NCBI GenBank assembly: GCA_965208025.1
Contig: OZ242302.1
Location: forward strand, 1,936,727 to 2,000,726
Source of the DNA: Rhodothermales bacterium
GTDB taxonomy: Bacteria; Bacteroidota; Rhodothermia; Rhodothermales; Bin80
DNA length: 64,000 bases
Direction of reading: 5' to 3'
Positions 5,025 to 27,265 of this stretch are shown one piece after another. The notes below the pieces were generated by a model, which did not search any database, had not been told where the DNA came from, and saw only the letters and a list, made by a program, of their open reading frames with translations. The translations under genes were made by a program, and so were the position numbers. How positions within the stretch are numbered: the stretch's first letter is position 1; the number at the start of each line of letters is the position of its first letter.

Positions 5025-7226
<2,202 letters not shown>

Positions 7227-7527
7227 TCGACATTTATGGCCGACCTCCAAAATGTAATGGATCACCCGCTCCAATGCTTTGAGAAATATTCGCCATAGTT
7301 GTGTTGGGATGGAAAATCTTTAATATGATTTTCTCAGTCCGAAAGAATCTCTCTTTCCTCAAAATCAGATCACTTGGAGTATGAAATGGTACGTCACCAA
7401 ACAAGAATTGGAAATATATATATCTCGTGAAAAGTATCTGGAAACTCCAACTATCCTGACTTTTGGAACTTATTAGGTGGGATCGATGTGTTATACGTTT
7501 ACATGGTGAGTCCCCTTATTTTGGAGA

Positions 7528-7980
7528 ATGACTGCTACGATGCGAACCCACCGACTTCTGTGTGCTGTACTTAGCGTTAGCCTGCTATTCAGTACTTCAG
7601 GTTTTTTGTTGGGGGCAGACTGTTCTTCTGGTGATGACCGTGCCGATTTGCCAGCGGATCATCATTCCCCTGCCTCTACTCATAGACAACATCTTCCCTG
7701 TCCATCCGAACGTGATTCCACACCTGTGGAACCCATGCCTTGTTCTCAACATGCCATCCCGTGCTGTACAATTCAGGCAGTGCCTCCTGTTGAGATGTCC
7801 ACTACACTGTTTGAATCAAACCGAATTTCTTCAGGCGACCTGATCCCGTTGCGGCCCCTTGATCCCTTTCATGAGATTGACGCATGGGCAAAATGGTACA
7901 GGGCTTCCTCTTCCCCACTAGACCCTGTCTGTTGCCTCTTTTCTGATCGGCAAGCTTTTCTGGGTACGTTCCTGATCTGA
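7528..7980 (+). CDS. hypothetical secreted Cys/His/Pro-rich protein upstream of the metal efflux operon
   Basis: 150-aa ORF with a hydrophobic signal-like N-terminus (LLCAVLSVSLLFSTSGFLLG). It has multiple Cys and His residues (HHSPASTHRQHLPCP, PCSQHAIPCC, VCC). It is co-directional with, and 86 nt upstream of, the outer-membrane factor gene. No family recognised. Confidence 0.4.
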   Translation: MTATMRTHRLLCAVLSVSLLFSTSGFLLGADCSSGDDRADLPADHHSPASTHRQHLPCPSERDSTPVEPMPCSQHAIPCCTIQAVPPVEMSTTLFESNRISSGDLIPLRPLDPFHEIDAWAKWYRASSSPLDPVCCLFSDRQAFLGTFLI

Positions 7981-8066
7981 TAGGCCACTGGTGTGCCTGT
8001 TTCACGGGATGCAGATTCGCTGTACTTCCGTGCAGATGCTCAGCTAAACCTATTGTTCAGGAAATC

Positions 8067-9368: not shown

Positions 9369-9401
9369 TGTCTATTTCAGCATCGTACGACATCAACTGA
9401 C

Positions 9402-10813: not shown

Positions 10814-13800
10814 ATGATGATAGAAAGAATCATTGAAGGATCAGTGAAAAACCGCTTCCTGATCATCCTGCTAACTCTTTTGATCGGGGCAGCCGGTGTG
10901 TATGTTCTATTCCGAACACCAGTTGATGCGATCCCTGATCTGAGCGATGTTCAGGTTATTGTCCACACTGAGTATCCCGGGCAGGCTCCGCAGGTCGTTG
11001 AAGATCAGGTTACCTACCCACTGACTACGGCGATGCTCGCAGTGCCATTCGCCAAGGCAGTGCGAGGCTATTCTTATTTCGGTTCGTCATTCGTCTACAT
11101 CATTTTTGAAGACGGGACAGACCTGTATTGGGCTCGGAGTCGTGTCTTAGAATCTCTGAACTATGTGGGAGGACGACTACCAAGTGGAGTAACCCCTGCA
11201 TTGGGGCCGGACGCTACGGGGGTGGGATGGGTATTCAAATATGTACTTCACAGTGACCACCTTCACGATCTTCAACAACTGCGCTCCATTCAAGACTGGT
11301 ATCTACGCTATGAGTTGATGAGTGTACCGGGAGTGGCTGAGGTCGCCTCTATTGGAGGCTATGTGAAGCAGTATCAGGTGGAAGTTGATCCCAATAAGCT
11401 TCTGGCCTACAATGTACCACTGTCCAGAGTTCGCACTGCTTTACGGCGAAGTAACAGTGATGTGGGTGGTCGCCTGATTGAGATGGGCGAAACCGAATTT
11501 ATGGTACGTGGGCTGGGGTATATCCAATCAATTGAAGATGTGGAGAATACGCCTGTCGGAGTGGACGAGAACGGCACCCCGGTACTCATTCGGAATATTG
11601 CTGATGTACACTTGGGACCCGAACTGCGGCGCGGACTCATTGACTGGAACGGTGAAGGTGAAGCTGTCGGTGGCATTGTCGTGATGCGTTACGGAGAAAA
11701 TGTACTCAGGACGATTGATGCTGTGAAAGAAAAATTGGAAGAATTAAAAAGGGGATTACCAGAAGGGATTACCATTCACACGACCTACGACCGCAGTAAC
11801 CTGATCAAGCGAGCCATTGACAACCTCAAAGATAAGCTATTGATTGAAAGCATCATTGTCGCAGTCGTGATCATGATGTTTCTGCTGCATGTCCGAAGTG
11901 CATTTGTAGTGATCCTCACCCTGCCTCTCGGCATTCTCATTGCGTTCTTCGTCATGTACATCCAGGGCCTGAATGCCAATATTATGTCCCTGAGTGGGAT
12001 TGCTATCGCCATTGGGGCCATGGTGGATGCCTCTGTCGTAATGGTTGAAAATGCCCATAAGCATCTTGAGCGTCAGAAAGGGGAAAAAGATCACTGGCGC
12101 ATCGTTGTGAATGCAGCAAAAGAGGTTGGACCAGCACTATTCTACTCGCTCCTGATCATCACACTTTCTTTCCTGCCTGTTTTCACATTGGAAGCTCAGG
12201 AGGGACGGCTTTTCAAGCCTCTGGCCTTTACAAAAACCTATGTGATGGCTGCCTCCGCCCTTTTATCTATCACGATAGTTCCAGTCCTGATGGGATATTT
12301 TGTTCGTGGCAGAATCCTGCCCGAAAAGAAGAATCCAGTTAGCCGCCTACTGATTAGAGCCTACAAGCCTGTGATTCAAATAGTTCTTCGTTTCAGATGG
12401 TTGACGATCATTGTGGCGCTGGTGATCCTTGGCGCTACGGTTTACCCACTTGGAAAACTTAGCAGGGAATTCATGCCTCCTTTGAATGAAGGAGATCTTC
12501 TCTACATGCCTACAACGGATCCCGGGATCAGTATCACGAAAGTCAAGGAGCTATTACAGCAGACCGACAAGATCATCAAAAGTTTTCCCGAGGTTGAACA
12601 TGTCATGGGCAAGGCTGGGCGGGCAGGAACTGCGACCGATCCTGCTCCCCTATCCATGTTGGAGACTATCATCACTCTCAAGCCTGAACATGAATGGCGC
12701 GAGGGGATGACAATGGATCATCTCATTGGTGAACTTAATGACGCAATCAATTTTCCCGGTTTAACCAACACATGGACAATGCCAATCAAGGCCCGCATTG
12801 ATATGCTTTCTACGGGGATCAAAACTCCTGTAGGTATCAAGCTCATGGGACCGGATCTGGCGGTCCTTGCTAATCTCAGCCAAGAGGTGGCTGCTGTGGT
12901 ACAGTCAATCCCTGGCACGCAGAGTGCGTATCCGGATAAGACGGTTGGAGGTAAATTTCTTGATTATAAAATCAACCGCACGGTTGGAGGTAAATTTCTT
13001 GATTATAAAATCAACCGCGAAGAATCCGCCCGATACGGGCTCACCGTAGGTGACGTACAGGATGTAATCCTGTCGGCCATCGGAGGGATGAACGTTACGC
13101 AGACCGTTGAGGGACTGGAGCGATATCCAGTCAATGTTCGATACAGCCGAGAGCTTCGGGACAATTTGCCTGCACTGAATCGGGTTCTGATCCCTACGCC
13201 CACGGGAGCACAGATTCCGCTCAGTTATGTAGCTGATTTTAACATTGTGAACGGACCTCCTGTGATCAAGAGCGAGAACGCTCGCAAGACATCTTGGGTG
13301 CACATTAATATGCAAGATTCTGATATAGAAACATATGTGAACCGTGCTCGCACAGCGGTCAATGAGCAGGTGACCTTCCCCGAGGGATACAGTATTGTCT
13401 GGAGTGGTCAATATGAATACATTACCCGTGCTCAGCAGCGCCTGCAGTTGGTCATCCCAATTACCCTACTCGTCATCTTTGTACTTCTATACCTGAATTT
13501 TAGAAATGTCACCGAAAGTTTGATTGTGATGCTGTCCTTACCTTTTTCAGTCGTTGGAGGAATCTGGTTACTCTATGTACTGGACTACCATCTCAGTGTC
13601 GCTTCTGGGGTGGGGTTTATTGCCCTTGCGGGCGTCGCAGCTGAAACAGGAGTGGTCATGCTGATCTACTTGAATCAAGCTTACAGGGAAAAGCTGTCTC
13701 AGGGTCGGATGAATTCGGTGAAGGATCTCTACGATGTGGTCATTTCTGGTGCTGTTGATCGTGTGCGTCCTAAAATGATCACTGTCATTACAATCATGGC

Positions 13801-13987
13801 AGGGCTGTTACCTATCCTGTGGGGTACTGGCACTGGTTCAGAGGTCATGAAGCGCATCGTGGCCCCGATGGTGGGCGGAATGGTTTCTGTAACAATATTG
13901 ACACTCATTGTCATCCCAGTAATTTACTATCTGTGGAAACGTCATGCCTTGCGGCGAGATGTAGAGAGGGATTCATTGGAATACTGA
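10814..13987 (+). CDS. cusA: heavy-metal efflux RND transporter, CusA-type (Cu/Ag)
   Basis: 1057-aa, 12-TM RND pump. TM4 reads GIAIAIGAMVDASVVMVENAHKHLE, which matches the CusA-type AxGAMVDA motif rather than the CzcA DFGIIVDGAVV motif. The gene contains an in-frame 13-aa tandem duplication, listed as a separate repeat feature. Confidence 0.93.
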   Translation: MMIERIIEGSVKNRFLIILLTLLIGAAGVYVLFRTPVDAIPDLSDVQVIVHTEYPGQAPQVVEDQVTYPLTTAMLAVPFAKAVRGYSYFGSSFVYIIFEDGTDLYWARSRVLESLNYVGGRLPSGVTPALGPDATGVGWVFKYVLHSDHLHDLQQLRSIQDWYLRYELMSVPGVAEVASIGGYVKQYQVEVDPNKLLAYNVPLSRVRTALRRSNSDVGGRLIEMGETEFMVRGLGYIQSIEDVENTPVGVDENGTPVLIRNIADVHLGPELRRGLIDWNGEGEAVGGIVVMRYGENVLRTIDAVKEKLEELKRGLPEGITIHTTYDRSNLIKRAIDNLKDKLLIESIIVAVVIMMFLLHVRSAFVVILTLPLGILIAFFVMYIQGLNANIMSLSGIAIAIGAMVDASVVMVENAHKHLERQKGEKDHWRIVVNAAKEVGPALFYSLLIITLSFLPVFTLEAQEGRLFKPLAFTKTYVMAASALLSITIVPVLMGYFVRGRILPEKKNPVSRLLIRAYKPVIQIVLRFRWLTIIVALVILGATVYPLGKLSREFMPPLNEGDLLYMPTTDPGISITKVKELLQQTDKIIKSFPEVEHVMGKAGRAGTATDPAPLSMLETIITLKPEHEWREGMTMDHLIGELNDAINFPGLTNTWTMPIKARIDMLSTGIKTPVGIKLMGPDLAVLANLSQEVAAVVQSIPGTQSAYPDKTVGGKFLDYKINRTVGGKFLDYKINREESARYGLTVGDVQDVILSAIGGMNVTQTVEGLERYPVNVRYSRELRDNLPALNRVLIPTPTGAQIPLSYVADFNIVNGPPVIKSENARKTSWVHINMQDSDIETYVNRARTAVNEQVTFPEGYSIVWSGQYEYITRAQQRLQLVIPITLLVIFVLLYLNFRNVTESLIVMLSLPFSVVGGIWLLYVLDYHLSVASGVGFIALAGVAAETGVVMLIYLNQAYREKLSQGRMNSVKDLYDVVISGAVDRVRPKMITVITIMAGLLPILWGTGTGSEVMKRIVAPMVGGMVSVTILTLIVIPVIYYLWKRHALRRDVERDSLEY
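12941..13018 (+). repeat. perfect 39-nt x2 tandem duplication inside cusA (13 codons, TVGGKFLDYKINR x2)
   Basis: nt 12941-12979 and 12980-13018 are identical (acggttggaggtaaatttcttgattataaaatcaaccgc). The duplication is in frame. Confidence 0.97.
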
Positions 13988-14856
13988 TCTCAAGTTGCTA
14001 CTTTATGGTGTTCCCAATGGATGGAATTTTCCCATTTCTGCTTTGAGGATTCCTAACTTCAATTTTCAGAGCTTCAGCAGCCTTGTTTGGCCCAACTAAC
14101 TGCTTTGAGTTCCTTGGCTTTGTTCACTGAAATGTAGAGGGCTTCCCTCCTTTATGAGACCAGAATCTAATCAAGAAACAACCCTAAGAATGTTTTTATT
14201 GATCACTCTTACATCATCTCTATCATGAATTCTCTAAAAGGTGGTTCGGTCTGCATTGATAGTCTCTTTCCATTCTGCCAGATCAATTTGCTTCATTATG
14301 GGAGGCAAGGCACACAGCATAAACGGCTTCTCCAGCAGCTATAATTGCACTTATTGCACCAATCCAATCATCTGGTATCGTAGTGATCGGGATAGATGTG
14401 AAGTTGTCGCATACTACAATGTGGTTCTGCAGTTACCCCGGCCTTCAAATTGTGTAAGAACTAGCAGACGCAAGGTAGAGAGATTTGAAATACCTGAGAC
14501 AAAAATCCAATTCATTTAAAAGTTGCCAGCTATTTTCTCTGGTAATCAGTGCCCATACATTTGATACGTAGAGTTGCTCGTCTAATAGAATTACAGTATA
14601 CGAGTTGGGGACCAACACCTGCACTGTTGACTATGCTGGTAATTTCATCTCAATACACAAAATAGCGAAGATTCCTAGTCAGGAGCCTGAAGCAGGCATC
14701 CCCAAAGGTCAAACCGCTAACCCATCAGCCATTTGCGCAGGAGCTGAGTGAGGAGTTTGATATGCCCAGTGCAAGTATGGAAAGAGTACGACAAGCATTA
14801 TTCATGCCCCTTGATACAACTGGTGACGTTTCGGAAAATCCGCAGGAGGAAGATAG

Positions 14857-15154
14857 CTAAAATTGCTTATCTTGATAATTGCTAAATAGGTACCGGGCGA
14901 GCAGTATAACGGGAGCAAATACAGTTGATAGTGCTGTGCCTAGCATAGCTATCAATACCGTATCACTCAATTTGAATCCAGAAGCATTAGGTCCACTCAG
15001 AAACAGGAATAAAATTGAACAAACAAGACTTCCTATTGCTATTCTGACAAAGAGATCTGCATACCGATAACGGTTCTCATTCTTCCGTTCTTTGCTCCTC
15101 TATACGAATCTCGTGTTGCCTATTTTACAACTCGAATTCACGAACTCTTTCTTT
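14857..15154. repeat. direct repeat copy A (~298 bp), partner at 17434-17729
   Basis: By eye there are only 3 substitutions over the first ~235 nt, and the last ~60 nt are more diverged. Copy A ends exactly where an ISL3-type terminal repeat (ggttctacc...) begins at 15155. Confidence 0.9.
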
Positions 15155-15601
15155 GGTTCTACCGCAATTCGTGTGGAATGCTTACCTTTCGTTCTCTCTA
15201 AATTTATATATTTTGGTTCTACCACAAACCTTATGGATAAAAGTCTAACCATCCGCGGATGAGTAGAATAATGCGTTCCATGTGTTCAAACCTACACTAT
15301 ATCTGGCAACCATTTTGAGTTCTTGGATTTTGCCATTAAGTTCTGTTATGGTGTTCAATCGTATGGGCTATGGCGCATTACAGGCTCCGTCAAGATGTCG
15401 CTGATACATTTCAGCAACCATGAGACAATCTTGATGCACCTCTATTCAACACGTATCATCTACATTTCTACAGATCCCTCTGGTTCATAAATGGTTCTCA
15501 TTCCACACAAATTGTGATCCTTTTTTTTCGTCCTACCCAGACCCCAGACCCTACCCAAGGTTCATAAATGGTTCTCATTCCACACAAATTGTGATAGAAC
15601 C
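15155..15601. mobile_element. nest of ISL3-family end fragments (solo inverted repeats plus a decayed transposase 3' end; MITE-like)
   Basis: Terminal repeat motifs of the intact ISL3 at 54180-55461 recur here. ggttctaccgcaattcgtgtggaatg is at 15155-15180 and ggttctaccacaaaccttatgg at 15215-15236. cattccacacaaattgtgatcc is at 15499-15520 and cattccacacaaattgtgatagaacc at 15576-15601. Region 15240-15440 resembles the 54200-54400 transposase 3' region (for example gcattacagg..caagatgtcgctga). A 37-nt direct repeat lies at 15482-15518 and 15559-15595. Confidence 0.7.
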
Positions 15602-15820: not shown

Positions 15821-16652
15821 TCAGTGATAGGTGCCATAGTAGCCACGCTTGAGCAATGACCAGAAGGATTCCATACCGTTGATATGGGCTTCCCCGTTCA
15901 CGTATTCCTTGACCGAGTGTTTAACGGTCGCATAAGCAGCTCTTTTTAATGCCTGATACGCTCCTGCGGTCATCGGTATATACTTGTGCCTCTTTGTTTG
16001 AAGTGCTGTATACGAAGCCTGTGATCGTCTCTGCGGTCGTGTCTGTAACGACCTGCGCTTGAACCCTCTTGGTCTCACGGTCTTTGGCTCCTACGACAGC
16101 CGTTTTACCAACGGTTCCCCGTCCCGCGTTCAGTTTCTTGTGTTCGTGTTTGTTCTTTTCTTTACCTCCTACGTAGGTCTCATCTACTTCAACGGGGCCT
16201 GCAAACTCTTCAAGATCATTATTCCATGATTCACGGATCCAATGCGCCAAATGCCAAGCAGTTTTCTGAGTCACATCCAGATCGCGGTGTAGCTTCATAC
16301 CGGAAACGCCTTTGATTCCTGTGTCTATGATGTAGATCGCTAATGCCCATACTTGATAACTCAACTTGGAATCCCGTATGACCGTTCCTACGCGCACGCT
16401 GAACCGCTTACGACAGCCCTCTTCTCTGCACTGATAGGGCATGTGATGTTTGGCACCAGTCTGTACATTTGTGGATCCGCAGTGTGGGCAGCAAGGTTCG
16501 TTTCCCCAACGTTGCTGTGCAAACCACTTTTCAGCAGTAGCATCATCGGGAAACATCTGCATAAGCTTGACCCATGATATTCCCTTGCGGAATGATTTGC
16601 CTGGTCCTGTTCGTTGTTTACTCATTGTATTTAATTGTCGCTGTGTACCCAA
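15821..16652 (-). pseudogene. IS1595-family transposase, frameshifted and apparently 3'-truncated
   Basis: There is an N-terminal zinc-ribbon (CCPHCGS...CREEGC) and a DDE region. The reading frame switches from ORF 15921-16652 to ORF 15821-16078 by a 1-nt shift near nt 15965-15975 (...VYTDD | GAYQALKRAAYATVKHSVKEYVNGEAHINGMESFWSLLKRGYYGTYH). The ORF stops right after GTYH, where family members normally continue. Confidence 0.8.
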
Positions 16653-16799: not shown

Positions 16800-17252
16800 A
16801 TGGCTACAGTATTAGATGTTGCAGCTTACATATTGAAACAGAAAAAAGTTCTCTCTACATGGAAACTTCAGAAGCTGGTGTACTACAGTCAAGCATGGTC
16901 GCTTGTTTGGGACGAAGAACCCTTATTTAAAGAGAAAATCCAGGCATGGATCAATGGGCCTGTGTGTCCTGCTCTGTACAAAGAACATAAAGGAAGATTC
17001 CAAATTCGTAAAATCTCTTCTGGCGATCCAACAAAACTAAACCAAGATCAGAGGGAAACCGTGGATGCAGTTCTCAGATTCTACGGTGATAAACCTCCAC
17101 ATTGGCTAAGCCATTTGACGCACATGGAGCCCCCTTGGAAAAATGCACGCAAGGGGCTTTCAATGAGAGAACGGGGAAGTGCAGTTATCTCTCATGGTGC
17201 AATGGCAGATTATTACGGAGGCATCAATGCAGACGACCCTCTTCCGCTTTGA
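16800..17252 (+). CDS. Panacea (DUF4065)/SocA-type antitoxin domain protein
   Basis: 150-aa ORF. The pattern VAAYILKQ...STWKLQKLVYYSQAWSLVWDEEPLFKEKIQAWINGPVCPALY matches the KLQKLLYY...W..GPV.P.lY signature of DUF4065/Panacea proteins. Confidence 0.75.
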   Translation: MATVLDVAAYILKQKKVLSTWKLQKLVYYSQAWSLVWDEEPLFKEKIQAWINGPVCPALYKEHKGRFQIRKISSGDPTKLNQDQRETVDAVLRFYGDKPPHWLSHLTHMEPPWKNARKGLSMRERGSAVISHGAMADYYGGINADDPLPL

Positions 17253-17433
17253 TTGATGGGAGGGAGTGGATTGAATCAGGAATTTGATATGCCCGGAGCA
17301 AGCATGAAAACAGTACGAGAGGCTTTCTTCAAGTCTCTCGCTCCAAAGGAAAGCTCTCAGAAGCCTAAGAAATAGTGAGTCAATCTCTAGGGAAGGGATC
17401 CAGCTACCAATTGTTACTTTGGGATATAATTCC

Positions 17434-17729
17434 CTAAAATTGCTTATCTTGATAATTACTAAATGGGTACCGGGCGAGCAGTATAACGGGAGCAAATACA
17501 GTTGATAGTGCTGTGCCTAGCATAGCTATCAATACCGTATCACTCAATTTGAATCCAGAAGCATTAGGTCCACTTAGAAACAGGAATAAAATTGAACAAA
17601 CAAGACTTCCTATTGCTATTCTGACAAAGAGATCTGCATACCGATAACGGTTCTCATTCTTCCGTTCTTACTCCTCTATACGGATCTCGTTTTACCCATT
17701 TGACAGCTCGAATCCACGAACTCTTTCTT
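17434..17729. repeat. direct repeat copy B (~296 bp), partner at 14857-15154
   Basis: See copy A. Copy B ends exactly where a second, different ISL3-type terminal repeat (ggctcttc...) begins at 17730. Confidence 0.9.
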
Positions 17730-17922
17730 GGCTCTTCAATTATTTTAGTGAACGGGGTCTATTTCGAACACTTTCTGGATAGAGATCCAGACCTCCCAGA
17801 TAGAAGTAGATCGCGTTCCTCAACCGATCAACATTACGGAAGCCGCGGCTACGAATTTTTACGGTTTTGATTCGACTGTTAATGCTTTCTGCCGGGGCAG
17901 TTCTTACTTTTTCGTTCATCAT
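17730..17922 (-). pseudogene. ISL3-family transposase 3'-terminal fragment with its terminal inverted repeat
   Basis: The 60-aa ORF ...NSRIKTVKIRSRGFRNVDRLRNAIYFYLGGLDLYP parallels the C-terminus of the intact ISL3 transposase in this window (...INGKIQEIKTVGRGYRTFEKFRSAILFFCGGLDLYP). The terminal ggctcttc is a classic ISL3 inverted-repeat start. No upstream transposase sequence remains. Confidence 0.8.
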
Positions 17923-18386
17923 GAATCACCTTAGATTTTTTTCACACCTCCAAAACGAACTCACCCATAAAAATAGTTTTTCAACTGAATTTTGACATGG
18001 GCAACCTGCCATTTAGCCATTAATTGATTCAGTTCTTGACTTAAGATTAGTGGGTTAATCAGTCTGCTACTGATGAGGTTCCTAGTCATTACCTACCATT
18101 ATTTAACATGATTCAGACAAACTATCAGTAAGCAACGATATCCTGCTACTCTCAGTTCATGCTGGATGATGGTGTCCAACCAACGTTAGAGACAAATCAT
18201 CCGCAGACGCTTTTTTGGCGAGAAAAGACACGAAAGTGAAGTACAAATTGTATCTTTGATTTTGGTTGGTTTCTTCAGTTTGAATGAGTTCAGAGTGAAG
18301 AAATCCCCATAAAATCCCAAGTCAACAGGATTCAGTGATTTTACGAAAACCTGAATTAGGATGAGCATATTCCAAAGTATCACATA

Positions 18387-19148
18387 ATGCAATCTGAGAC
18401 GATTCTAAATAATAATCTGTCTCTAATCTCTCTTGAGCAGGATCACGCTGCGATAATACGGAAGAGAGTGCAAAAGTATCTTGAAACTGCTCTGATTGAG
18501 GATGATACGCCAACATTGGTCCGTAATACAGACCGAGTGGACAACTACGGTGAGGTTTTCACACCGAACTGGTTTGTCAAACAAATGCTTGACTTCATGC
18601 CCGGTGATCCAGTGGCAGACCTTGATAAGTCAGCACTTGATCCTTCCTGTGGGAATGGACAATTTCTAACGGAGGGACTACGTCGCAAATTGGTTACCGC
18701 TGCACTGCAGTACTCAGATTCACTTGATCACGAACAATATCAATTTGACTGCCTGCGCGCACTCTCTAAACTCTACGGGATTGATATTAACGCTGATACT
18801 GCTACCGAGGCTCAGGAGCGTTTGGCTGCCATCGTATTCAAGGCATATGAGTCAGTTACGGCCTGTACGCCTGAATTTGACTTTTGTCAGGCAGTTGAGT
18901 ATATCCTTCGTACCAATATTGTGATTGGAGACTTTCTGGCAGATAATTATAGATTGGTAGAATGGATCCCCCATGAAAAACACTCCTTTGAGAGGAAATT
19001 CTGGCATGCGGAGGTGATTTTTTCAAAGAAGAGTCGACGAAGCACACTCTTTGAAGACGTTGATGAACCTGTGAAGGTACTCCCACCAATACACTGGAGA
19101 TCCCTCACTGGTCATGAAATTGAAAATGCATACGCCCGACATTCTTGA
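18387..19148 (+). CDS. methyltransferase-like protein: N-terminal half of a gamma-class N6-adenine MTase fold, lacking catalytic motif IV
   Basis: 253-aa ORF with motif X (YGEVFTP), motif I (LDPSCGNGQFL) and a motif II/III-like LYGIDIN...NIVIGDFL. No (N/D)PP(Y/F) motif is present before the stop. It overlaps the next gene by 35 nt. Confidence 0.6.
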   Translation: MQSETILNNNLSLISLEQDHAAIIRKRVQKYLETALIEDDTPTLVRNTDRVDNYGEVFTPNWFVKQMLDFMPGDPVADLDKSALDPSCGNGQFLTEGLRRKLVTAALQYSDSLDHEQYQFDCLRALSKLYGIDINADTATEAQERLAAIVFKAYESVTACTPEFDFCQAVEYILRTNIVIGDFLADNYRLVEWIPHEKHSFERKFWHAEVIFSKKSRRSTLFEDVDEPVKVLPPIHWRSLTGHEIENAYARHS

Positions 19149-20643
19149 ATGCTTAGCGAATTTGTCGAGTGACGAGGTCTTCACGCCTCCAGCATTTGCG
19201 AATTCAATGTTGGATCATTTGCCAGATCGCGTCTGGAAAGACCCATCGCTCAAATGGCTTGATCCATGTACCAAGAGCGGGGTATTTCTGCGTGAGGCGG
19301 CACGGAGACTGATGAGAAGTTTGGAACCCGAGATTCCAAATTTTGAGCACCGCCGGGAGCATATCTATCAAAACATGCTTTTTGGTATTGCTATTTCAGA
19401 ACTTACCGCACTCATTTCTCGTCGCACGCTGTATCACTGCAAAGATGCCACACTTCCATCACACAGTATCGTCACCTTTGACACACCAGAGGGAAATGTT
19501 CGATTTCCCGAAGCAATATGCGAATGGAAAAATGGAAGATGTATTCATTGCGGGGTGAATGAGAACAAGGACCCGTTACCCGAGGGGAGAGAAGCACATG
19601 TTCATCCCTTCCTTCATATGGATTTAGACGAAATATTTGAAGAGGACAACATGCAAGTAGATATCATCATGGGAAACCCTCCCTATCAAATGCAAGATGG
19701 AGGCGGCACAGGGAAAAGTGCATGTCCACTATATAACAAATTTGTGAATAAGGCAATTGAGACTGAATCAGATTTGATCACCTATGTTATTCCTGCCCGC
19801 TGGTACGCAGGCGGGAGAGGATTGGATAAATTCAGATCTCAGATGCTTTCAGATTCTCGGATCTCAATCCTCCAAGACTACCCAAGGTCGGAAGATGTCT
19901 TCCCAGGAGTTGATATCGCAGGTGGAATTTGTTCGTTTTTGCGTGACAAGGATCACTCTGGCGACTGTTTGATCATTCCCAATGGGGACATTCAAGTGTC
20001 AAATATTCGCAGGTTAGATGCACATGAAGTATTTATACGAGATGTCTCTGATCTATCAATTTTAGAAAAAGTACGGGTGGTTGCCAAACACCAAGGATTT
20101 GATTCCATGAGCAGGTCTGTTCGATCTCATAATTTCTTTGGAATTCGGCCTCATGAACTTCCATCTTCAATTGCCGACAAATCATGTACCGAAGCCGATA
20201 TTCAACTGGTGACCAAAGATGGAGATAAGTATATCCCCAGATCCGCAGTGCTCAAGAATTCAGATAGAATTGATCAATGGAAAGTAATTGCATCTAAAAC
20301 TAACCCCCAAGGTGGAAGACCTGATAAACAAGGGCTTCGCCATGTGATTAGTAAGCCCCGGGTAATCCCCCCAGGAAGCGCATGCACCGAGACGTATCTT
20401 GTGATTGACCTCTTCAAGCAACCAGAACCAGCTGGTCGGCTATTTGATTATGTGAAGTCACAATTTTTTCGTTTCCTATTATCTCTCCGAACTCCAACTC
20501 ATAATATCTCTCGAACCTGTTTTGAATTTATTCCCTATCTGCCACTAGATCGTAACTGGACAGATGAGATTTTGTACCAATTCTTCTCATTAGACAGTGC
20601 AGATATTGATCATATTGAAAGCAAAATCAAGCCCATCAGTTGA
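19114..20643 (+). CDS. N6-adenine DNA methyltransferase (Eco57I/TaqI-like gamma class)
   Basis: 509-aa ORF with motif X (DEVFTPP), a degenerate motif I (LDPCTKSGVFL) and catalytic motif IV (IIMGNPPYQ, NPPY at nt 19675-19686). A Cys/His cluster (YHC...AICEWKNGRCIHCG) is inserted between motifs. An alternative start is at 19126. Confidence 0.8.
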   Translation: MKLKMHTPDILECLANLSSDEVFTPPAFANSMLDHLPDRVWKDPSLKWLDPCTKSGVFLREAARRLMRSLEPEIPNFEHRREHIYQNMLFGIAISELTALISRRTLYHCKDATLPSHSIVTFDTPEGNVRFPEAICEWKNGRCIHCGVNENKDPLPEGREAHVHPFLHMDLDEIFEEDNMQVDIIMGNPPYQMQDGGGTGKSACPLYNKFVNKAIETESDLITYVIPARWYAGGRGLDKFRSQMLSDSRISILQDYPRSEDVFPGVDIAGGICSFLRDKDHSGDCLIIPNGDIQVSNIRRLDAHEVFIRDVSDLSILEKVRVVAKHQGFDSMSRSVRSHNFFGIRPHELPSSIADKSCTEADIQLVTKDGDKYIPRSAVLKNSDRIDQWKVIASKTNPQGGRPDKQGLRHVISKPRVIPPGSACTETYLVIDLFKQPEPAGRLFDYVKSQFFRFLLSLRTPTHNISRTCFEFIPYLPLDRNWTDEILYQFFSLDSADIDHIESKIKPIS

Positions 20644-20781
20644 TCATCTCACTCCTCATTCCAGAAATTACCCGCTCCGCAAAGCGGCCTCCCTTTGGCA
20701 TGGTACAGTTGGATAATTACGGTTGGGTTACAATATTTGTCTCCCTGACTCAACACTTCGCGCTAAATTGTTTGTCAAGTG

Positions 20782-23217
20782 ATGGGTAGAGATTCCACCA
20801 ATTCGTCCAAATCCAGACGAATTCCAAAAATATACGCCTACTCCTACGGCGAGTATCTTGTTAAAACGTGGGAACACCGAAGCGGTGATGGAAAAGGATG
20901 GATGAAGATCGGTTACACTACCAAAGAAAACGTGATGGAGCGCATTCAGGAGCAAACCGGAGCCAGCGTTCCAATCAAAATTACTCTCTTGTTGGAAGAG
21001 ATTGCAGTTACAGATGATGGTCAGTCGTTCAGAGATACTGATATTCATCAGCAACTGATTAGCAATGGCGGACATCGAGTACACAATGAATGGTTTGAAG
21101 TCTCCTTAGATGAGCTGAAAATTGCCATTGCCGAGGTGAAACAGGGCCGAAAAGTAACCGCGCCCGAAAATTTTAGAATGCGCCCAGAACAGATCGCCGC
21201 CGTGAAGACTACAGCGGACTACTTCCGGCGACAGAATGATGAGAAGGCAAGGCATTTTCTGTGGAATGCGAAAATGCGATTTGGAAAAACATTTGCATCC
21301 TATCAATTAGCCCTGGAAATGGGTTGGACAAAAATCCTGATTCTTACCTATCTCCCTGCGGTTGAAGACTCATGGAAGAGTGATCTGGAACGGCATCAGG
21401 ATTTTGAAAGTTGGCAATTCATCGGAAAAGGAGAACGATTTGATACCATTGATGAACAGCGGCCATATGTCTGGTTTGTTTCCTTTCAGGATCTTAAGCA
21501 GCGGGATGAAGGAGGGGAAGTGAAAGACCGCCTCGAGTTGGTATTCGTGGAAGAGTGGGATTGTATCATCATTGATGAATATCATTTTGGTGCATGGCGA
21601 AGTAGTGCAAAAGACCTCTATGCTTCCGATGATTCGGACGAAGAAGCAGAACTAGTTGATGATTACGATTCGGAAACATCTCCAAGTGAGGAATTACCCA
21701 TTACAACTGCCCATAGACTCTATCTTTCAGGTACCCCATTTCGAGCCATAGCAGAAGGAGAATTTAGTGAGGATCAGATCTTCAATTGGACCTATGCTGA
21801 TGAGCAAGGCGCCAAGCGCAATTGGACAGAAAAAGATGGGAGTGTAAATCCGTACCTACCCCTGCCTCAGCTGAAGATGTACACCTATGAGATCAGCGAT
21901 GCCACTCGCTCATTTGCGGAAACCCAATTCGACGACGAATTCGGACTCAATCAATTCTTTCATGCCGAGAGTCAGAATCGAATCCCCCGCTTCCAGAATG
22001 AGAATGAAGTGCAGAAATGGTTAGATTGGTTGCACTCATCAGTAACGGTCAAGGATCAGAACCGGAATCTCGGACCATTTGCTGATCCTCAACTTCGGAG
22101 CTCTTTATGTCACACCGTATGGCATCTGCCCGATGTCAAGGCATGTAGAGCAATGGATCATCTCCTTAATGACCCGCGAAACCCCTTCTTTAACGACTTT
22201 CAGGTCATTTGTGCAGCGGGAGCACAAGCCGGGATTGGTGTCAATGCATTGCCGCCCGTTCGTCGTGCGATCGGTGATGGTTCAAAGACCAAAACGATTA
22301 CCCTTACCTGTGGTAAGCTGCTGACCGGCGTCACGGTGCCCCAATGGGGAGCAATCCTTATGCTCCGAGATACAAAATCAGCCGAAACATATTTTCAGGC
22401 AGCATTCCGAGTTCAGTCTCCTTGGACACTCCAGAATAGTCAAGATCCCAATCAATCCGAAATTATTAAGCCCGTCGCATATATTTTTGATTTTGCGCAA
22501 CATCGCGCTCTGGAGATGGTGTATGGATTCTGTGCACAGCAGGCGAATGCAAAAGGGGAGCGGGATACAAAATCCGAAGTCCGAGAATTTCTCAATTTCC
22601 TTCCCATACTTGCGTATAGTGATGGGCAACTTATTGAACTAGACGAATCAAATTTGATGGATATTGCAACATCTGGTGTTGGATCGGCAATGTTAGCCCG
22701 ACGCTGGCAGTCACCAAGGATGATCAACCTCAGTCGGGACGCATTACAGGCAATCCTCAATAATGAGGAACTCCTTCAATCACTGGAAAACATGGAGGCC
22801 TTTCGCTCATTGCGAAAAATTACTGCGGAAATCCTCACCGCAGAACAATCAATTAAACAAGCCAAATCGCAAGGAAAACCCCATAAATCTGCCCGTAACA
22901 AAATTAATAAACGCCGTAAAGAAATTCAGGATGCGCTCTTACAGTTTTTGACCCGAGTCCCAATCTTTATGTATCTGACCGATTACCGTGAGGAAAGCCT
23001 AGTAGATGTGATTCGTAATGTTGAACCTGCTCTCTTCACAAAGGTCACAGGTCTGAAAATTAAAGACTTTGACACACTTTGCCAACTGGGCGTATTCAAT
23101 ACACAGATATTGAATCAGTCCATTTATGCCTTCAAGCGACAAGAAGCACAGAGCTTCTTAGGGGAAAAGTCCGCCGAACTCTTGTCCGAAGATGATCATG
23201 AAAGTGCGTCAGTCTAA
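20782..23217 (+). CDS. T5orf172 (GIY-YIG-like) nuclease domain fused to an SF2 (ResIII/DExH) helicase
   Basis: The N-terminus reads IYAYSYGE...WMKIGYTTKENVMERI...HNEWFEVSLDEL, a T5orf172/MUG113-like pattern. Helicase motif I is AKMRFGKT (GKT at nt 21283-21291), motif II is IIIDEYH (nt 21574-21585), motif III is LSGTPF and motif VI-like is QAAFRVQSP. The ORF track starts at GTG 20779; ATG 20782 is preferred. Confidence 0.7.
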   Translation: MGRDSTNSSKSRRIPKIYAYSYGEYLVKTWEHRSGDGKGWMKIGYTTKENVMERIQEQTGASVPIKITLLLEEIAVTDDGQSFRDTDIHQQLISNGGHRVHNEWFEVSLDELKIAIAEVKQGRKVTAPENFRMRPEQIAAVKTTADYFRRQNDEKARHFLWNAKMRFGKTFASYQLALEMGWTKILILTYLPAVEDSWKSDLERHQDFESWQFIGKGERFDTIDEQRPYVWFVSFQDLKQRDEGGEVKDRLELVFVEEWDCIIIDEYHFGAWRSSAKDLYASDDSDEEAELVDDYDSETSPSEELPITTAHRLYLSGTPFRAIAEGEFSEDQIFNWTYADEQGAKRNWTEKDGSVNPYLPLPQLKMYTYEISDATRSFAETQFDDEFGLNQFFHAESQNRIPRFQNENEVQKWLDWLHSSVTVKDQNRNLGPFADPQLRSSLCHTVWHLPDVKACRAMDHLLNDPRNPFFNDFQVICAAGAQAGIGVNALPPVRRAIGDGSKTKTITLTCGKLLTGVTVPQWGAILMLRDTKSAETYFQAAFRVQSPWTLQNSQDPNQSEIIKPVAYIFDFAQHRALEMVYGFCAQQANAKGERDTKSEVREFLNFLPILAYSDGQLIELDESNLMDIATSGVGSAMLARRWQSPRMINLSRDALQAILNNEELLQSLENMEAFRSLRKITAEILTAEQSIKQAKSQGKPHKSARNKINKRRKEIQDALLQFLTRVPIFMYLTDYREESLVDVIRNVEPALFTKVTGLKIKDFDTLCQLGVFNTQILNQSIYAFKRQEAQSFLGEKSAELLSEDDHESASV

Positions 23218-23326
23218 CTACATGTTCGGGTTCGATGATTTAATCACTGACTACGGAAATCATGATTCAACCGATTCCGATCCATCTGTGCTTGCACTGA
23301 TTGGTGAAGGTTGCCGCACATAAATA

Positions 23327-26300
23327 ATGTCCGAATTCTGCCACTTACACTGCCATACCTCCTACTCCCTGTTAGACGGAGCTGCCCGAATTGACTCACT
23401 CGTGAAACAGGCGAAAAAACTTGGAATGACCTCGCTCGGAATTTCCGACCATGCCAATCTGTATGGTGTCCCTGAGTTTTATACGATTGCTAAAAGAAAT
23501 GATATTCAGCCCATCATTGGCTGTGAATTCTACCTTTGTGCAAGTCCAATGAACGAGCGTCAGGATCGAGTGCGGTATCACCAGATCTTATGGGCAAAGA
23601 ATGAAGTGGGGTATCGAAATCTGATAAAACTGTCTTCTCTTTCGTTCCTGGATGGATTTTACTTCAAACCCCGAATAGATTTTGATCTGCTCTCCCAACA
23701 TCATGAGGGACTGGTAGCATCCACCTGCTGTCTCCAAGGCCAAATTCCTCAGGCAATCCTTGCGGGGAATCTGGATGAGGCGCGCCGACTTCTGAAGAAA
23801 TATGTGGATCTATTTGGTCCAGAAGATTACTACATAGAAATTCAGGACCACGGGATTGACAAACAGCATGTAGTGAATGAAACACTTATTGAGTGGGCGA
23901 GTGAGTTCAATCTGCAAGTTGTGGCAACCAATGATGTCCACTATGTGAAGAAAGAGGATGCGTTTGCCCAAGACATCCTTCTTTGCCTCCAGACCGGGAA
24001 GGATTTAAATGATCCCCAGCGACTACGCTTTGACAAGAAAGAATTCTACCTGAAGTCTGCAGAGGAAATGCGTGCCACTCTGGGGACTGGGATAGAAGCC
24101 TCCACCTGGATGGAAAACAGCCAGGCGATTGCGGATAAGTGCCAATTTGAGTTGCCGCTGGGTAAACTTCTGATGCCCCATTTCCAAATTCCTGATGAGT
24201 TTGGGGACGATGCTGACCATTACCTAAAGCATCTGGTATTTGAACGTGGGAAAAAACGATATCCAGATTTTTCTGACTCGGTCCAGTCTCGCCTGCTCTA
24301 CGAACTTGGAATTATTCAGGAAATGAAGTACGCAGGGTATTTTCTAATCGTACAAGATTTCACTACCGCCGCCCGCGAAATGGGCGTGTCCGTCGGTCCT
24401 GGACGTGGATCTGCAGCTGGAAGTGCGGTGGCCTATTGCCTCGGAATTACCAATGTTGACCCCCTCAAATATGACTTGTTGTTTGAGCGCTTCCTGAATC
24501 CCGAGCGTACCTCCATGCCCGATATTGATATTGACTTTGATGATCATGGAAGGGCAAAAGTGATTGATTATGTGGTCGAAAAATATGGGCGAAAAAATGT
24601 GAGTCAAATCATCACCTTCGGGACCATGGGGGCACGTACCGTGGTTCGGGATGTAGCTCGAGTGCTCAAGATTCCATTGCAGGAAGCAGATAAAATCGCG
24701 AAGTCTATTCCCAATGGCAAAATCAGTCTAGATGAAGCACTGACCACCGTAGATGAATTGAAAGAACTAGTCAAATCCAATCGAAAGGAGATCAACAGCT
24801 TGCTCGAGGCCTCCAAAGTTCTGGAAGGGTGTGCCCGGCATACTGGCGTACATGCCGCTGGAGTCATCATTGCACCCAGCATCGTGAGTGATTATGTTCC
24901 CGTCGCAACCACCAAAAACAAAGATGAGCAGGTACTTACAACCCAATACTCCGGAGATTGGGTGGAAGATTTTGGGCTGCTCAAGATGGATTTCCTTGGG
25001 CTTTCAACATTGACGATCATTGAGGACACCTGTAAACTCGTCAATGAACGATCAGGCAGTTCGCCAGATATGGATTCGCTCCCTCTGGACGATGAACCCA
25101 CACTTAAACTCTTTCAGCGAGGGGATACCAATGCAATTTTCCAATTTGAATCTGACGGAATGCGAAAATGGCTCATCCAGTTGAAACCTACCTCTCTGGA
25201 TGATTTAATCGCCATGAATGCCCTCTACCGGCCTGGGCCGATGGATCTGATCCCCAACTATATTGAGCGTAAGCACGGCAGGGAACCCATTGAATATCCC
25301 CATGAATCTCTTGAACCGGTCCTGAAATCTACCTACGGAATCCCCGTTTTTCAGGAACAAGTCATGCAAATGGCGCAGGTGATGGGAGGGTATTCCCTCG
25401 GTGCAGCAGATATTTTGCGTCGAGCAATGGGCAAAAAGAAAAAATCTGAAATGGAAGCCCAACGTAGCCGATTTGTGGAAGGGGCAATTGCGAATGGGGT
25501 CTCCCAAGTCACCGCCAATGAAGTCTTTGATATGATGGATAAGTTTGCGGGATATGGGTTCAATAAATGTATTGACGAATCAACTCTGATCACCAATGCG
25601 CTCACGGAAGATCAAATCTCCGTTCGCCAGCTTCATGAAAAGGGATGGGAAGGATTCCGTGTCTATGCACTTACATCAGAATCCGATCTGGTTCCCAGAA
25701 AGATAGAAGCGGTCTACTATAACGGATTTAAGGAGGTATATGAATTGGTCACCTCCAGTGGACATCGCATCCGTACCACCTCTACCCATCGTTTCCACTC
25801 ACAGGAGGGCTGGCGGTGTCTGGGAGATCTTCGCGAAGGGATGAAGGTTGCAACCATTCAAACTGGAATGGTTGCTGAACCTGAGAATCCCATGAATGGG
25901 GGAACCTGTCTACTGGAAACCAACCTAAAAATAACATGGGATCGAATTGTGGAAGTCGTCCCCGTCGGGCATGCCCATACCTATGACCTAACGGTAGAGA
26001 AGGATCATAATTACCTTGCCAATGGGTTCGTGGTTCATAATAGCCACAGTGTTGCCTACTCTCTGATCGCCTATCAGACTGCCTATCTCAAAACTCATCA
26101 TACGGCCGAGTTCATGGCAGCCGTCATGACGAACGTCTCTGGAGATTCCAAGAAATTTAATGCGATGTTGGACGAAGCTCAGCGTTTGGGGCTTCGTCCC
26201 CAACCACCATCGGTGACGCACAGTAAAGAGAATTTCTCTGTTGACGAAGGTGGGACGATTCACTTCGGACTTTCTTCTGTCAAGGGCGTAGCAAAGAATG

Positions 26301-27265
26301 CAGTTGATCATATCGTTGCAAGTAGAGATAAGGAGGGACCTGCAAGTAGCCTCTTTGAATTTGTAAAGCGGCTGGATCCACTGATCCTGAATAAGAAATC
26401 TCTGGACTCCTTGGCGCGTGTTGGAGCATTAGACCAATTTGGAGATCACCGAGCCCAGATCGTTGAGGCTCTGGATCTGGCGGTTCATTACGCTGAATAC
26501 GTTAAGAAGGAAGAAGATTATGGTCAAGGATTCCTGTTTGCCGAGGACGATTCGCTCACTTCAAGGCCAGAACCCGAACTTCCAACCTGCGCAGAGTGGT
26601 CACATACTGAAATTCTTGCCCAAGAACGGGAGCTGGCCGGATTTTATATCTCTGGACATCCATTGGACGGTTGGGAAATTGAACAGCGATCCTGTTCGGA
26701 TGTAAATCTTGGAGAGATCATTACGCTTGCATCCAAGAGTGATGAAAAACGCTATCGTACGGCCTGCGGCGTCATCACACTGGTCAAACTCAGAAAAACG
26801 CGCAAAGGAGAACCAATGGCATCGGTGACTCTTGAAGATCGCACGGGCCAAGCCGAAGTGATCTGTTTCCCGTCTGTCCATTCTGAGGTAAGAGAATATC
26901 TTCAAGAAAATGCCCTAGTGGCTGCTTCAGGGGAGATTGAAGATGCCAGCGGCTCAGCAAAAATTCTCGCCCGACGCCTATTTCCTCTGAGCTTCATACG
27001 AAGTAAATTTCTGGATAATATTGTTATCACTTTGGATTTTGCTGTAGTAACTGAGACAAACCTCGCTCAATTCATTGACCTATGCAACGACAATCCTGGA
27101 GAAAAGAAAATTTTCTTTAAGTTCATGGACCAAGATCAAGAACTAAAATTGTTGAGCGAGAAAATCAGCGTAACGGCAAATGATGAGTTGAGCACCTCTT
27201 TGGCATCTACATTTGGAATCGAAAATATTCGCCTTGAATGGAATGAGAAAAAAACCAAAGGATAA
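23327..27265 (+). CDS. dnaE: DNA polymerase III alpha subunit, intein-containing
   Basis: The PHP domain reads FCHLHCHTSYSLLDGA, with polymerase core motifs and a C-terminal OB region. At 1312 aa it is about 150 aa longer than typical because of an insertion in GYGFNK|SHSVAYS. Confidence 0.97.
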   Translation: MSEFCHLHCHTSYSLLDGAARIDSLVKQAKKLGMTSLGISDHANLYGVPEFYTIAKRNDIQPIIGCEFYLCASPMNERQDRVRYHQILWAKNEVGYRNLIKLSSLSFLDGFYFKPRIDFDLLSQHHEGLVASTCCLQGQIPQAILAGNLDEARRLLKKYVDLFGPEDYYIEIQDHGIDKQHVVNETLIEWASEFNLQVVATNDVHYVKKEDAFAQDILLCLQTGKDLNDPQRLRFDKKEFYLKSAEEMRATLGTGIEASTWMENSQAIADKCQFELPLGKLLMPHFQIPDEFGDDADHYLKHLVFERGKKRYPDFSDSVQSRLLYELGIIQEMKYAGYFLIVQDFTTAAREMGVSVGPGRGSAAGSAVAYCLGITNVDPLKYDLLFERFLNPERTSMPDIDIDFDDHGRAKVIDYVVEKYGRKNVSQIITFGTMGARTVVRDVARVLKIPLQEADKIAKSIPNGKISLDEALTTVDELKELVKSNRKEINSLLEASKVLEGCARHTGVHAAGVIIAPSIVSDYVPVATTKNKDEQVLTTQYSGDWVEDFGLLKMDFLGLSTLTIIEDTCKLVNERSGSSPDMDSLPLDDEPTLKLFQRGDTNAIFQFESDGMRKWLIQLKPTSLDDLIAMNALYRPGPMDLIPNYIERKHGREPIEYPHESLEPVLKSTYGIPVFQEQVMQMAQVMGGYSLGAADILRRAMGKKKKSEMEAQRSRFVEGAIANGVSQVTANEVFDMMDKFAGYGFNKCIDESTLITNALTEDQISVRQLHEKGWEGFRVYALTSESDLVPRKIEAVYYNGFKEVYELVTSSGHRIRTTSTHRFHSQEGWRCLGDLREGMKVATIQTGMVAEPENPMNGGTCLLETNLKITWDRIVEVVPVGHAHTYDLTVEKDHNYLANGFVVHNSHSVAYSLIAYQTAYLKTHHTAEFMAAVMTNVSGDSKKFNAMLDEAQRLGLRPQPPSVTHSKENFSVDEGGTIHFGLSSVKGVAKNAVDHIVASRDKEGPASSLFEFVKRLDPLILNKKSLDSLARVGALDQFGDHRAQIVEALDLAVHYAEYVKKEEDYGQGFLFAEDDSLTSRPEPELPTCAEWSHTEILAQERELAGFYISGHPLDGWEIEQRSCSDVNLGEIITLASKSDEKRYRTACGVITLVKLRKTRKGEPMASVTLEDRTGQAEVICFPSVHSEVREYLQENALVAASGEIEDASGSAKILARRLFPLSFIRSKFLDNIVITLDFAVVTETNLAQFIDLCNDNPGEKKIFFKFMDQDQELKLLSEKISVTANDELSTSLASTFGIENIRLEWNEKKTKG
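25568..26041 (+). other. mini-intein (158 aa, no homing-endonuclease domain) within dnaE
   Basis: It begins with Cys (CIDESTLI, block A). Block B TxxH is in IRTTSTHRF. Blocks F/G read TYDLTVEKDHNYLANGFVVHN, followed by the +1 Ser. It splits the conserved extein motif GYGFNK/SHS. It is 474 nt long and in frame. Confidence 0.88.

Follow-up and report, generated by a model that had tools for sequence, protein, structure and literature searches.

The locus and its three gene products

The DNA analysed here, referred to as the window, is a stretch of 64,000 nucleotides from a Rhodothermales bacterium (assembly GCA_965208025.1, contig OZ242302.1, positions 1,936,727 to 2,000,726). It contains an island, bounded by acrB (10814-13987) and dnaE (23327-27265), in which three intact genes, here named A, B and C, follow one another on the forward strand. 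A encodes a half-methyltransferase, B an N6-adenine DNA methyltransferase and C a predicted nuclease fused to a superfamily 2 (SF2) motor (Table 1). Together they probably make up a restriction-modification system of three subunits that depends on ATP and corresponds to a Type ISP-like single-chain enzyme in split form. The open reading frame (ORF) listing of the window agrees with the layout described in the first-pass annotation, which had been made from the sequence alone: the genes are co-directional, A and B overlap by 35 nt, and the B-C gap measures 135 nt to a GTG at 20779 (138 nt to the ATG at 20782). Judged by their relatives at 70-74% identity, all three proteins are full length: A has 253 aa (254-255 in the relatives), B 509 aa (505-508) and C 811 aa (803-811).

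Table 1. Features of the A-B-C locus and of its upstream surroundings (window coordinates).
Feature	Position	Strand	Description
Gene A	18387-19148	+	253 aa; non-catalytic half-methyltransferase
Gene B	19114-20643	+	509 aa; Eco57I-type gamma-class N6-adenine DNA methyltransferase with presumed C-terminal target-recognition region
Gene C	20782-23217	+	811 aa; predicted nuclease-translocase; alternative GTG start at 20779 gives 812 aa
Cys/His cluster of B	19540-19617	+	C143-x2-C146 ... H162 ... H168, before motif IV
Catalytic motif IV of B	19675-19686	+	NPPY, residues 188-191; G187 N188 P189 P190 Y191 invariant in 24 homologues
Variable region of B	19969-20523	+	residues 286-470; least conserved segment
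T5orf172 (GIY-YIG-superfamily) domain of C	20815-21156	+	residues ~12-125
SF2 helicase-like motor of C	21166-22665	+	residues 129-628; GKT, DEYH, SGTPF, QAAFRVQ
GKT of C	21283-21291	+	residues 168-170
DEYH of C	21574-21585	+	residues 265-268
C-terminal helical region of C	22702-23151	+	residues ~641-790; all-helical in the AF2 model
Direct repeat, ~400-460 nt	14745-15153 and 17272-17729		core of 236 nt, 99% identical: 14857-15092 versus 17434-17669
IS1595/ISXO2-type transposase	15821-16652	-	two overlapping frames, i.e. frameshifted
SocA/Panacea-domain antitoxin gene	16800-17252	+	E 2e-17
ISL3 transposase C-terminal fragment	17740-17922	-	60 aa

The Pfam check proposed in the first-pass annotation returned weak N6_Mtase on A, Eco57I on B, and T5orf172 and ResIII on C. 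In A, the match is N-terminal and stands alone (residues 52-98, E 0.013). The absence of a catalytic motif from A was rightly recognised at first pass, as were motifs X (EVFTP) and I (DPSCGNGQFL); motifs II (YGIDI) and III (IVIGDFL) are present as well, and motif IV is missing. E56, V57, F58, T59, P60, P86, G89, G91 and F93 are invariant in the family alignment. None of 56 A homologues contains (N/D/S)PP(Y/F/W/H), and motif I, (D/E)PxxGxGx(F/Y), is kept in 55 of them. The protein is 198-290 aa long in 55 of the 56 loci with A, the outlier being 339 aa (L028). A profile of the A family retrieved 986 representatives of 50%-identity clusters at E<=1e-30, and nearly all of the best-scoring 150 are 150-300 aa long.

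Residues 55-146 of A align with residues 20-106 of B across motifs X, I and II (HHalign 98.6%, E 1e-15) and the two diverge beyond; by this alignment, A is a paralogue of the N-terminal half of B. In A, motif I retains its canonical GxG and motif II (GID) its Asp, at positions where B has Lys and Ala, both invariant. The AlphaFold2 (AF2) model of A (pLDDT 83) comprises strands 1-3 of the methylase fold followed by three more strands. Its structural neighbours, all partial, are the methylase domains of BsaXI, PglX, EcoKI M, LlaBIII, CamA and DrdV (E 0.03-0.3). Because A is conserved, short and coupled to B in all loci, and never carries a catalytic motif, it is a core subunit and not debris or a pseudogene fragment. 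The term 'half-methyltransferase' used at first pass is correct, though it underplays a subunit that is universally conserved. Two other identities were rejected for A. That of a decayed methylase fragment is ruled out by its conservation and its coupling to B in all loci. As for an active enzyme whose motif IV is cryptic, two candidates were examined: E192-W193, a Glu-aromatic pair that is conserved, is not an (N/D)PPY-type loop, and conservation of 'LPPIHW' (residues 231-236) is limited to close relatives.

B is a complete methyltransferase, as first annotated. Its Pfam match to Eco57I (E 2.6e-22) is accompanied by one to the PADLOC model MTase_II PDLC03375 (E 5.5e-32), and it scores 23.8 bits with MmeI_Mtase, below the cut-off of 27. 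The motif order X-I-II-IV is that of the gamma class. Homologues of B fall into more than 8000 clusters at 90% identity; all of 61 inspected have NPP(Y/F) together with a Lys-containing motif I, (D/E)(P/L)xxKxGx(F/Y). The Cys/His cluster noticed at first pass is real and conserved, each of C143, C146, H162 and H168 being kept in at least 90% of 24 homologues, and is a putative zinc site.

The N-terminal half is the most conserved part of B, with a mean identity of 64%, compared with 58% in the catalytic core and 40% in the variable region. We presume the latter to be the target-recognition domain (TRD), the specificity determinant of the system. One locus (L060) has tandem B genes (6914-8416 and 8569-9960), which differ at 2 positions in their first 122 residues and share 54% identity over the whole alignment. 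Divergence lies mainly downstream of motif IV, variable region included, and the second copy lacks the Cys/His cluster. This copy looks like a spare specificity cassette able to recombine via the identical 5' part.

C fuses an N-terminal T5orf172 domain to an SF2 motor, in line with the first-pass annotation, whose positions for GKT and DEYH, as for the NPPY of B, are exact. Pfam matches were T5orf172 (E 9.8e-9), MUG113 (E 1.5e-7) and ResIII (E 7e-7). The T5orf172 domain has a beta-beta-alpha-beta-alpha arrangement in the AF2 model, and K42, G44, T46, R54, H89, E103 and F105 are invariant in a family alignment of 23 sequences of 46-73% identity. Homologues of C are named 'GIY-YIG nuclease family protein' at NCBI. 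In the published definition of GIY-YIG-type catalytic sites, Arg and Glu are the defining residues; R54 and E103 would be this pair in C, and we presume the domain to be an endonuclease.

All motor motifs are invariant in the C family alignment, and LSGTPF and QAAFR, also listed at first pass, were both found. Foldseek matched the motor to Chd1/Snf2, LlaBIII (4xqk, E 1e-10, TMq 0.36), RIG-I, XPB, SauUSI and ZorD. As modelled, C resembles double-stranded DNA (dsDNA) translocases, with LlaBIII as the best match among restriction enzymes. Downstream of the motor, residues 714-790 align with residues 854-931 of a fused Pediococcus protein (see below), just before its methylase domain (start ~940). 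Because C-B fusions occur naturally, the C-terminal helices are presumed to be a coupler that docks on B.

C homologues form more than 8000 clusters at 90% identity. The best 120 listed are mostly 770-865 aa long, with T5orf172 and/or ResIII on record for nearly all. Longer C proteins of ~970-1005 aa occur in metagenome-assembled genomes of Bacteroidales, Clostridia and Anaerolineaceae (L061, L062, L064, L065, L067, L068, L069, L072, L075 and L080). No confident Pfam family was found in their ~140-aa C-terminal extension, a sub-threshold PcrA/UvrD tudor match being the sole hit.

Distribution, fusions and genomic context

Relatives of C were found in at least 597 species-level genomes (one genome per species was scanned), with hosts that include Melainabacteria, Campylobacterota, Bacteroidota, Proteobacteria, Chloroflexota, Firmicutes, Verrucomicrobiota and Myxococcota. 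Synteny was assessed in 80 fetched loci by tblastn of A, B and C followed by ORF calling; a locus was considered informative when at least 5.5 kb of DNA upstream of C was available, as in 41 of them. The order A-B-C on one strand recurs in 41/41 informative loci from unrelated phyla, and is therefore not due to chance. The first-pass annotation had asked whether homologues of C co-occur with A and B across genomes, and this synteny is the answer. A-B junctions are mostly stop/start overlaps of 4-29 nt, which suggests translational coupling. We defined the A-B-C family operationally by a short protein with motifs X-I-II-III and without IV, an Eco57I-type methylase with a K-S-G motif I variant and a T5orf172-SF2 protein, all co-directional; the window and all of the informative loci belong to it. 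In the 80 loci, no conserved fourth gene was found up- or downstream of A-B-C, the largest cluster of flanking genes having four members.

Searches with C by tblastn also retrieved proteins of ~1400 aa on Firmicutes plasmids (Pediococcus pRS5, Enterococcus, Lactococcus and Lactiplantibacillus), annotated as 'Eco57I restriction-modification methylase domain-containing protein'. In WP_012660355.1 of Pediococcus pentosaceus pRS5 (1417 aa), T5orf172, ResIII, Eco57I methylase and TRD follow in that order. The protein is collinear with residues 15-790 of C (E 2e-92) and then with residues 6-506 of B (E 8e-41). Directly upstream lies the gene for a 306-aa A-like protein with EVFTPTW (E 2e-6). This A-like protein matches PADLOC 'MTase_II' PDLC03390 (E 1e-73), as do some A proteins of the split family. 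One REBASE-derived PADLOC profile, PDLC03626 'REase_MTase_IIG', aligns with C over its positions 154-676 (E 5.1e-39) and with B over its positions 1006-1357 (E 2.4e-30); it also matches the fused Pediococcus protein (E 1e-117). Type IIG enzymes combine restriction and modification in one protein and cut near their site without ATP. Here these functions are divided between two genes, and the SF2 ATPase motor is complete; the IIG label of PDLC03626 looks like a filing convenience.

Fusions of A with B were also detected. In P0322, an A-B fusion is followed by a T5orf172-ResIII gene. P0336 (L084 6001-7743, 580 aa) comprises the whole of A followed by the part of B that begins at about residue 150, just before NPPY, and is devoid of B's own motifs X, I and II. 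It is a solitary gene with no C beside it, and its neighbours are an integrase gene and a Type I hsdM-hsdS pair. P0336 looks like a canonical single methylase and may be a deletion product.

At about 20 loci, co-directional genes are inserted between B and C (L008, L050, L016, L019, L059, L012, L021, L035 and L073 among them). The insertions encode YhcG/DUF1016 nuclease, AAA_15 with DUF4276 (PARIS-like), RhuM, Bro-N and Schlafen/AlbA_2 with HATPase_c_4, as well as a Tn5 transposase. The junction between B and C is a hotspot at which defence-type genes insert. The split system is also present on plasmids of Variovorax, Sphingopyxis, Mycobacteroides, Rhizobium, Deinococcus and Legionella, adjoining integrase and AbiE genes. 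A phage origin was considered and rejected, only three metagenomic phage records having a full-length relative of C. Distant relatives of the C motor (24-25% identity) occur in very large phages, namely Prevotella Lak megaphages and Synechococcus phages MA01, MA10, ME01 and MC09, and those of the Synechococcus phages are annotated as Eco57I or Type II restriction subunit.

In the window itself, the IS1595 and ISL3 remnants upstream of A are mobile-element debris, which bears out the earlier description of an island littered with insertion sequences (IS). The repeat of ~400-460 nt flanks the IS1595 fragments and the Panacea gene on both sides; it could be a target region that was duplicated, or mark the two ends of a composite element. 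No obvious toxin partner adjoins the Panacea gene among the called genes, and no tRNA gene was found as a marker of an integration site. When 17200-23500 was scanned for promoters and terminators, the counts did not exceed shuffle expectation, and there was nothing on the forward strand of the B-C gap. A perfect 37-nt direct repeat (15482-15518 and 15559-15595, spacing 77 nt) lies in non-coding DNA upstream of the IS1595 fragments. Immediately downstream of C, dnaE (Pol III alpha, 1312 aa) contains an intein at ~25649-26041, inserted after the finger domain (Pfam Intein_splicing, residues 775-905, E 4e-16). Further on, a 2748-aa ORF (36407-44653, forward strand) encodes leucine-rich repeats, eight Calx-beta matches and an autotransporter beta-domain. 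This block has a G+C content of 58-59% and a strong positive GC skew, compared with 44-50% G+C in the rest of the window.

Comparison with known systems

The fused Firmicutes proteins are homologous to C and then B and collinear with them, have an A-like gene upstream and share the K-S-G variant of motif I with B. They differ in that C and B are one polypeptide, whereas here two genes encode them, with B preceding C; moreover, the Cys/His insertion is absent (an alignment gap), motif I of the A-like partner is degenerate, and identity is 25-33%. No published characterisation of the fused form was found in the literature. The first-pass claim that the architecture fits no known class is too strong, as C and B are collinear with these single chains and PDLC03626 matches both.

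Type ISP enzymes such as LlaGI and LlaBIII likewise combine an N-terminal nuclease, an SF2 dsDNA translocase, a gamma-class adenine methylase and a TRD. The succession of SF2 translocase, gamma-class N6-adenine methylase and TRD is recognisable in A-B-C from the motor motifs, the structural match to LlaBIII and the motif order of B. However, the nuclease here is of the T5orf172/GIY-YIG type and not an Mrr-type PD-(D/E)xK domain (Pfam gave no Mrr match), and the single polypeptide of Type ISP is replaced by separate subunits plus an extra half-methylase. HMMER detected no sequence similarity of A-B-C to LlaGI or LlaBIII. It had been objected at first pass that Type ISP is a single polypeptide; this objection falls, as A-B-C can be read as a Type ISP-like architecture that has been split and is equipped with another type of nuclease.

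Type I systems resemble A-B-C in having a separate gamma-class methylase (HsdM) and a subunit with an N-terminal nuclease and SF2 motor (HsdR), and their operons typically host the same hitch-hikers (RhuM, YhcG, PARIS-like and AlbA_2 genes) as the B-C junction. In contrast, there is no HsdS here, the presumed TRD lying inside B, and the nuclease is not PD-(D/E)xK. No Methylase_S or HsdR match was found on A, B or C, and HsdR/HsdM models gave at most weak matches to motifs X and I (Pfam, PADLOC and NCBIfam). Type III systems pair a beta-class Mod with a Res subunit whose PD-(D/E)xK nuclease is C-terminal, whereas B is gamma-class and the T5orf172 domain of C is N-terminal; PADLOC Type III models did not match A, B or C. 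The core genes of BREX, DISARM, MADS and Hma (PglZ/BrxC; DrmA/B; Mad1-8; HmaA/C) were not encountered. The methylase motifs of A and B gave weak partial matches to PglX, DrmMI and mad2 (E 1e-4 to 1e-2), and C gave none. The first-pass exclusion of Type I, Type III, BREX, DISARM and Hma is consistent with these PADLOC results, which are confined to weak partial methylase matches. With NCBIfam models, C had no match and A and B only far sub-threshold ones.

A further relative in gene content is DnmA(YeeA)-YeeB-YeeC, a conserved defence-island operon with a gamma-class adenine methylase, an SF2 helicase and T5orf172 (PMC9973331, PMC2731913). From its description, helicase and T5orf172 are separate proteins, whereas in C the latter is fused N-terminally to the motor. 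Its methylase is a large MmeI-type protein of ~880 aa with no half-methylase described, and B falls below the MmeI_Mtase cut-off. A yeeA/yeeB pair (methylase and helicase) of Vibrio crassostreae protects from phage (bioRxiv 10.1101/2021.05.05.442762). Relatives of such enzymes associated with helicases and GIY-YIG domains were already remarked on, as unstudied, in 2009 and 2012 (PMC2731913, PMC3553950). In a 2024 survey of 132 defence systems, GIY-YIG domains are listed in three single-gene systems only.

For the pairing of A with B, METTL3-METTL14 and the Mod2 dimer of Type III enzymes, with its divided labour, may offer a purely functional analogy, an inactive or non-methylating protomer supporting the active one. 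Homology is not implied by this comparison, A being only a half-domain paralogue.

A proposed split restriction-modification system and its alternatives

We favour the reading of A-B-C as a split Type ISP-like restriction-modification system because its domains and motifs, its synteny, the natural fusions, the PDLC03626 matches, the structure of C, the defence context, the variable region of B and the phage protection given by the analogous yeeA/yeeB pair of Vibrio all point to it. The restriction-like logic proposed at first pass, a self-marking methylase plus an ATP-driven translocase-nuclease, is upheld, and the system is uncharacterised. It does, however, belong to a recognisable lineage, the PDLC03626 'Type IIG' family with a Type ISP-like architecture. 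The biochemical steps, the reading of a recognition site and the role of A are inferred as follows. B would recognise a DNA site by its variable C-terminal region and, judging from its motifs, N6-methylate adenine, marking host DNA. C would dock on B through its C-terminal helices, as the natural C-B fusions suggest. On unmethylated foreign DNA, the SF2 motor of C would translocate dsDNA with ATP, and by analogy with Type ISP the T5orf172/GIY-YIG-type domain would cut or nick, probably at a distance from the site and probably when motors collide or stall. In Type ISP enzymes, translocation driven by ATP starts from an asymmetric site, and cleavage follows a head-to-head collision. A would be a catalytically dead paralogue of the S-adenosylmethionine (SAM)-binding half of B and its obligatory partner, most likely in a catalytic/dead pseudo-dimer. 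It might stabilise or regulate B, possibly binding SAM itself.

Several observations weigh against this reading. No description or biochemical characterisation of the three-gene family was found in the literature. PDB sequence searches with C, B, profiles of the C and B families and the fused Pediococcus protein gave no useful match, the best being the N-terminal half of PglX with the B-family profile (E 0.014). Compared with PglX, the SAM pocket of B is non-canonical, having Lys for the first Gly of GxG and Ala for the first Asp of GLDID, which we take to be the ribose-binding acid; B by itself may therefore not be an active methylase. The A-like protein of Firmicutes has a degenerate motif I (LEITCGEAPYM), and cofactor binding by A is therefore not universal. 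Some T5orf172 domains, known from the ICP1/PLE literature, are DNA binders rather than nucleases. Finally, the DnmA-YeeB-YeeC operon of B. subtilis showed neither restriction nor phage protection when tested (PMC9973331).

The pocket of B also bears on how the methyltransferase is assembled. A and B could form a composite enzyme in which A is the working SAM-binding half, the NPPY and TRD half of B provides base flipping and specificity, and the divergent N-terminal half of B serves only as a scaffold or coupler to C, all else being as proposed above. The canonical GxG and GID acid of A, set against the invariant Lys and Ala of B, would suit this arrangement, as would P0336, a natural joining of A to B without B's motifs X, I and II, and the existence of separate REBASE-derived PADLOC models for the A-like protein (PDLC03390, 327 positions) and the C-terminal half of B (PDLC03375, 348 positions). 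We nonetheless regard it as unlikely. The half of B that would be reduced to a scaffold is its most conserved part and retains motif X (EVFTPP) and a Gly-x-Phe-Leu core, and a Rossmann sheet cannot accommodate strands 1-3 from elsewhere without displacement of those of B. The first glycines of motif I are also absent from M.TaqI, which is active nonetheless. P0336 is represented by one sequence from one contig, has no adjoining C and is perhaps a deletion product, and the degenerate motif I of Firmicutes tells against a cofactor-binding A here too. It is scarcely credible that A is instead an independent second methyltransferase modifying the other strand, like the separate M.Eco57I beside Eco57I. 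The names 'Type II methyltransferase' and 'N-6 DNA methylase' are indeed given to A-like proteins by REBASE-derived PADLOC models and NCBI, but the catalytic motif is missing from every A homologue, A has no target-recognition region, its homology to B stops after motif II, and it is short throughout a family of ~1000 representatives.

Other alternatives concern what the system does. C might block or remodel invading DNA in a BREX-like manner, giving modification-linked defence without cleavage or with a T5orf172 domain that is a DNA-binding or regulatory module. The Arg/Glu positions of the putative catalytic site come only from the family alignment, and domesticated DNA-binding T5orf172 domains exist. 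In Type I HsdR and Type ISP enzymes, however, the nuclease is N-terminal to the motor, which is the position that T5orf172 occupies here, and the domain is kept even in the fused relatives. K42, R54, H89 and E103 are moreover invariant across the 23 aligned sequences. We thus consider defence without cleavage rather improbable, although DnmA-YeeB-YeeC has no cleavage phenotype (PMC9973331) and no endonuclease activity was seen with YeeA alone (PMC2731913). DnmA has been proposed to be an orphan, gene-regulatory methylase (PMC9973331), and with this precedent the present cluster could be a decayed or domesticated relic that no longer restricts in this genome, B having such a regulatory role. 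Its position in an island of IS debris, and a B-C gap of 135 nt where many relatives have an overlap, would agree with decay. Yet all three ORFs are full length relative to their closer relatives, and every catalytic and motor motif is intact, which makes a relic very unlikely.

Under the split Type ISP-like reading, the universally conserved, dead half-methylase A is the most unusual part of the system. We tentatively suggest, as a possibility that is itself doubtful, that A is a pseudo-methyltransferase half-domain, dead but obligatory and cofactor-binding, and that by pairing with B it acts as a gate for the system. If so, A may complete or regulate the SAM site of B, or else may couple restriction to cofactor availability, a target of phage SAM-degrading enzymes. 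The restriction complex would then be built on a catalytic/dead methylase heterodimer, a type of subunit that, to our knowledge, has not been described for any restriction-modification class.

If the split Type ISP-like reading is right, A-B-C would be among the commonest uncharacterised restriction-type systems, spread over many bacterial phyla and plasmids. Current annotation splits it into 'N-6 DNA methylase', 'Eco57I methylase domain protein' and 'GIY-YIG nuclease / DEAD-box helicase', and in counts of defence systems it is probably recorded as Type IIG or overlooked entirely. In methylomes, N6-methyladenine motifs produced by B-type enzymes would have to be assigned to a system that depends on ATP rather than to an orphan or Type II methylase. 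The translocating enzymes of Type I, ISP and III would be extended to a GIY-YIG-type nuclease, and the family would offer a natural split-versus-fused pair for the study of communication between methylase and motor, one of its core subunits being a methylase paralogue that is conserved yet inactive.

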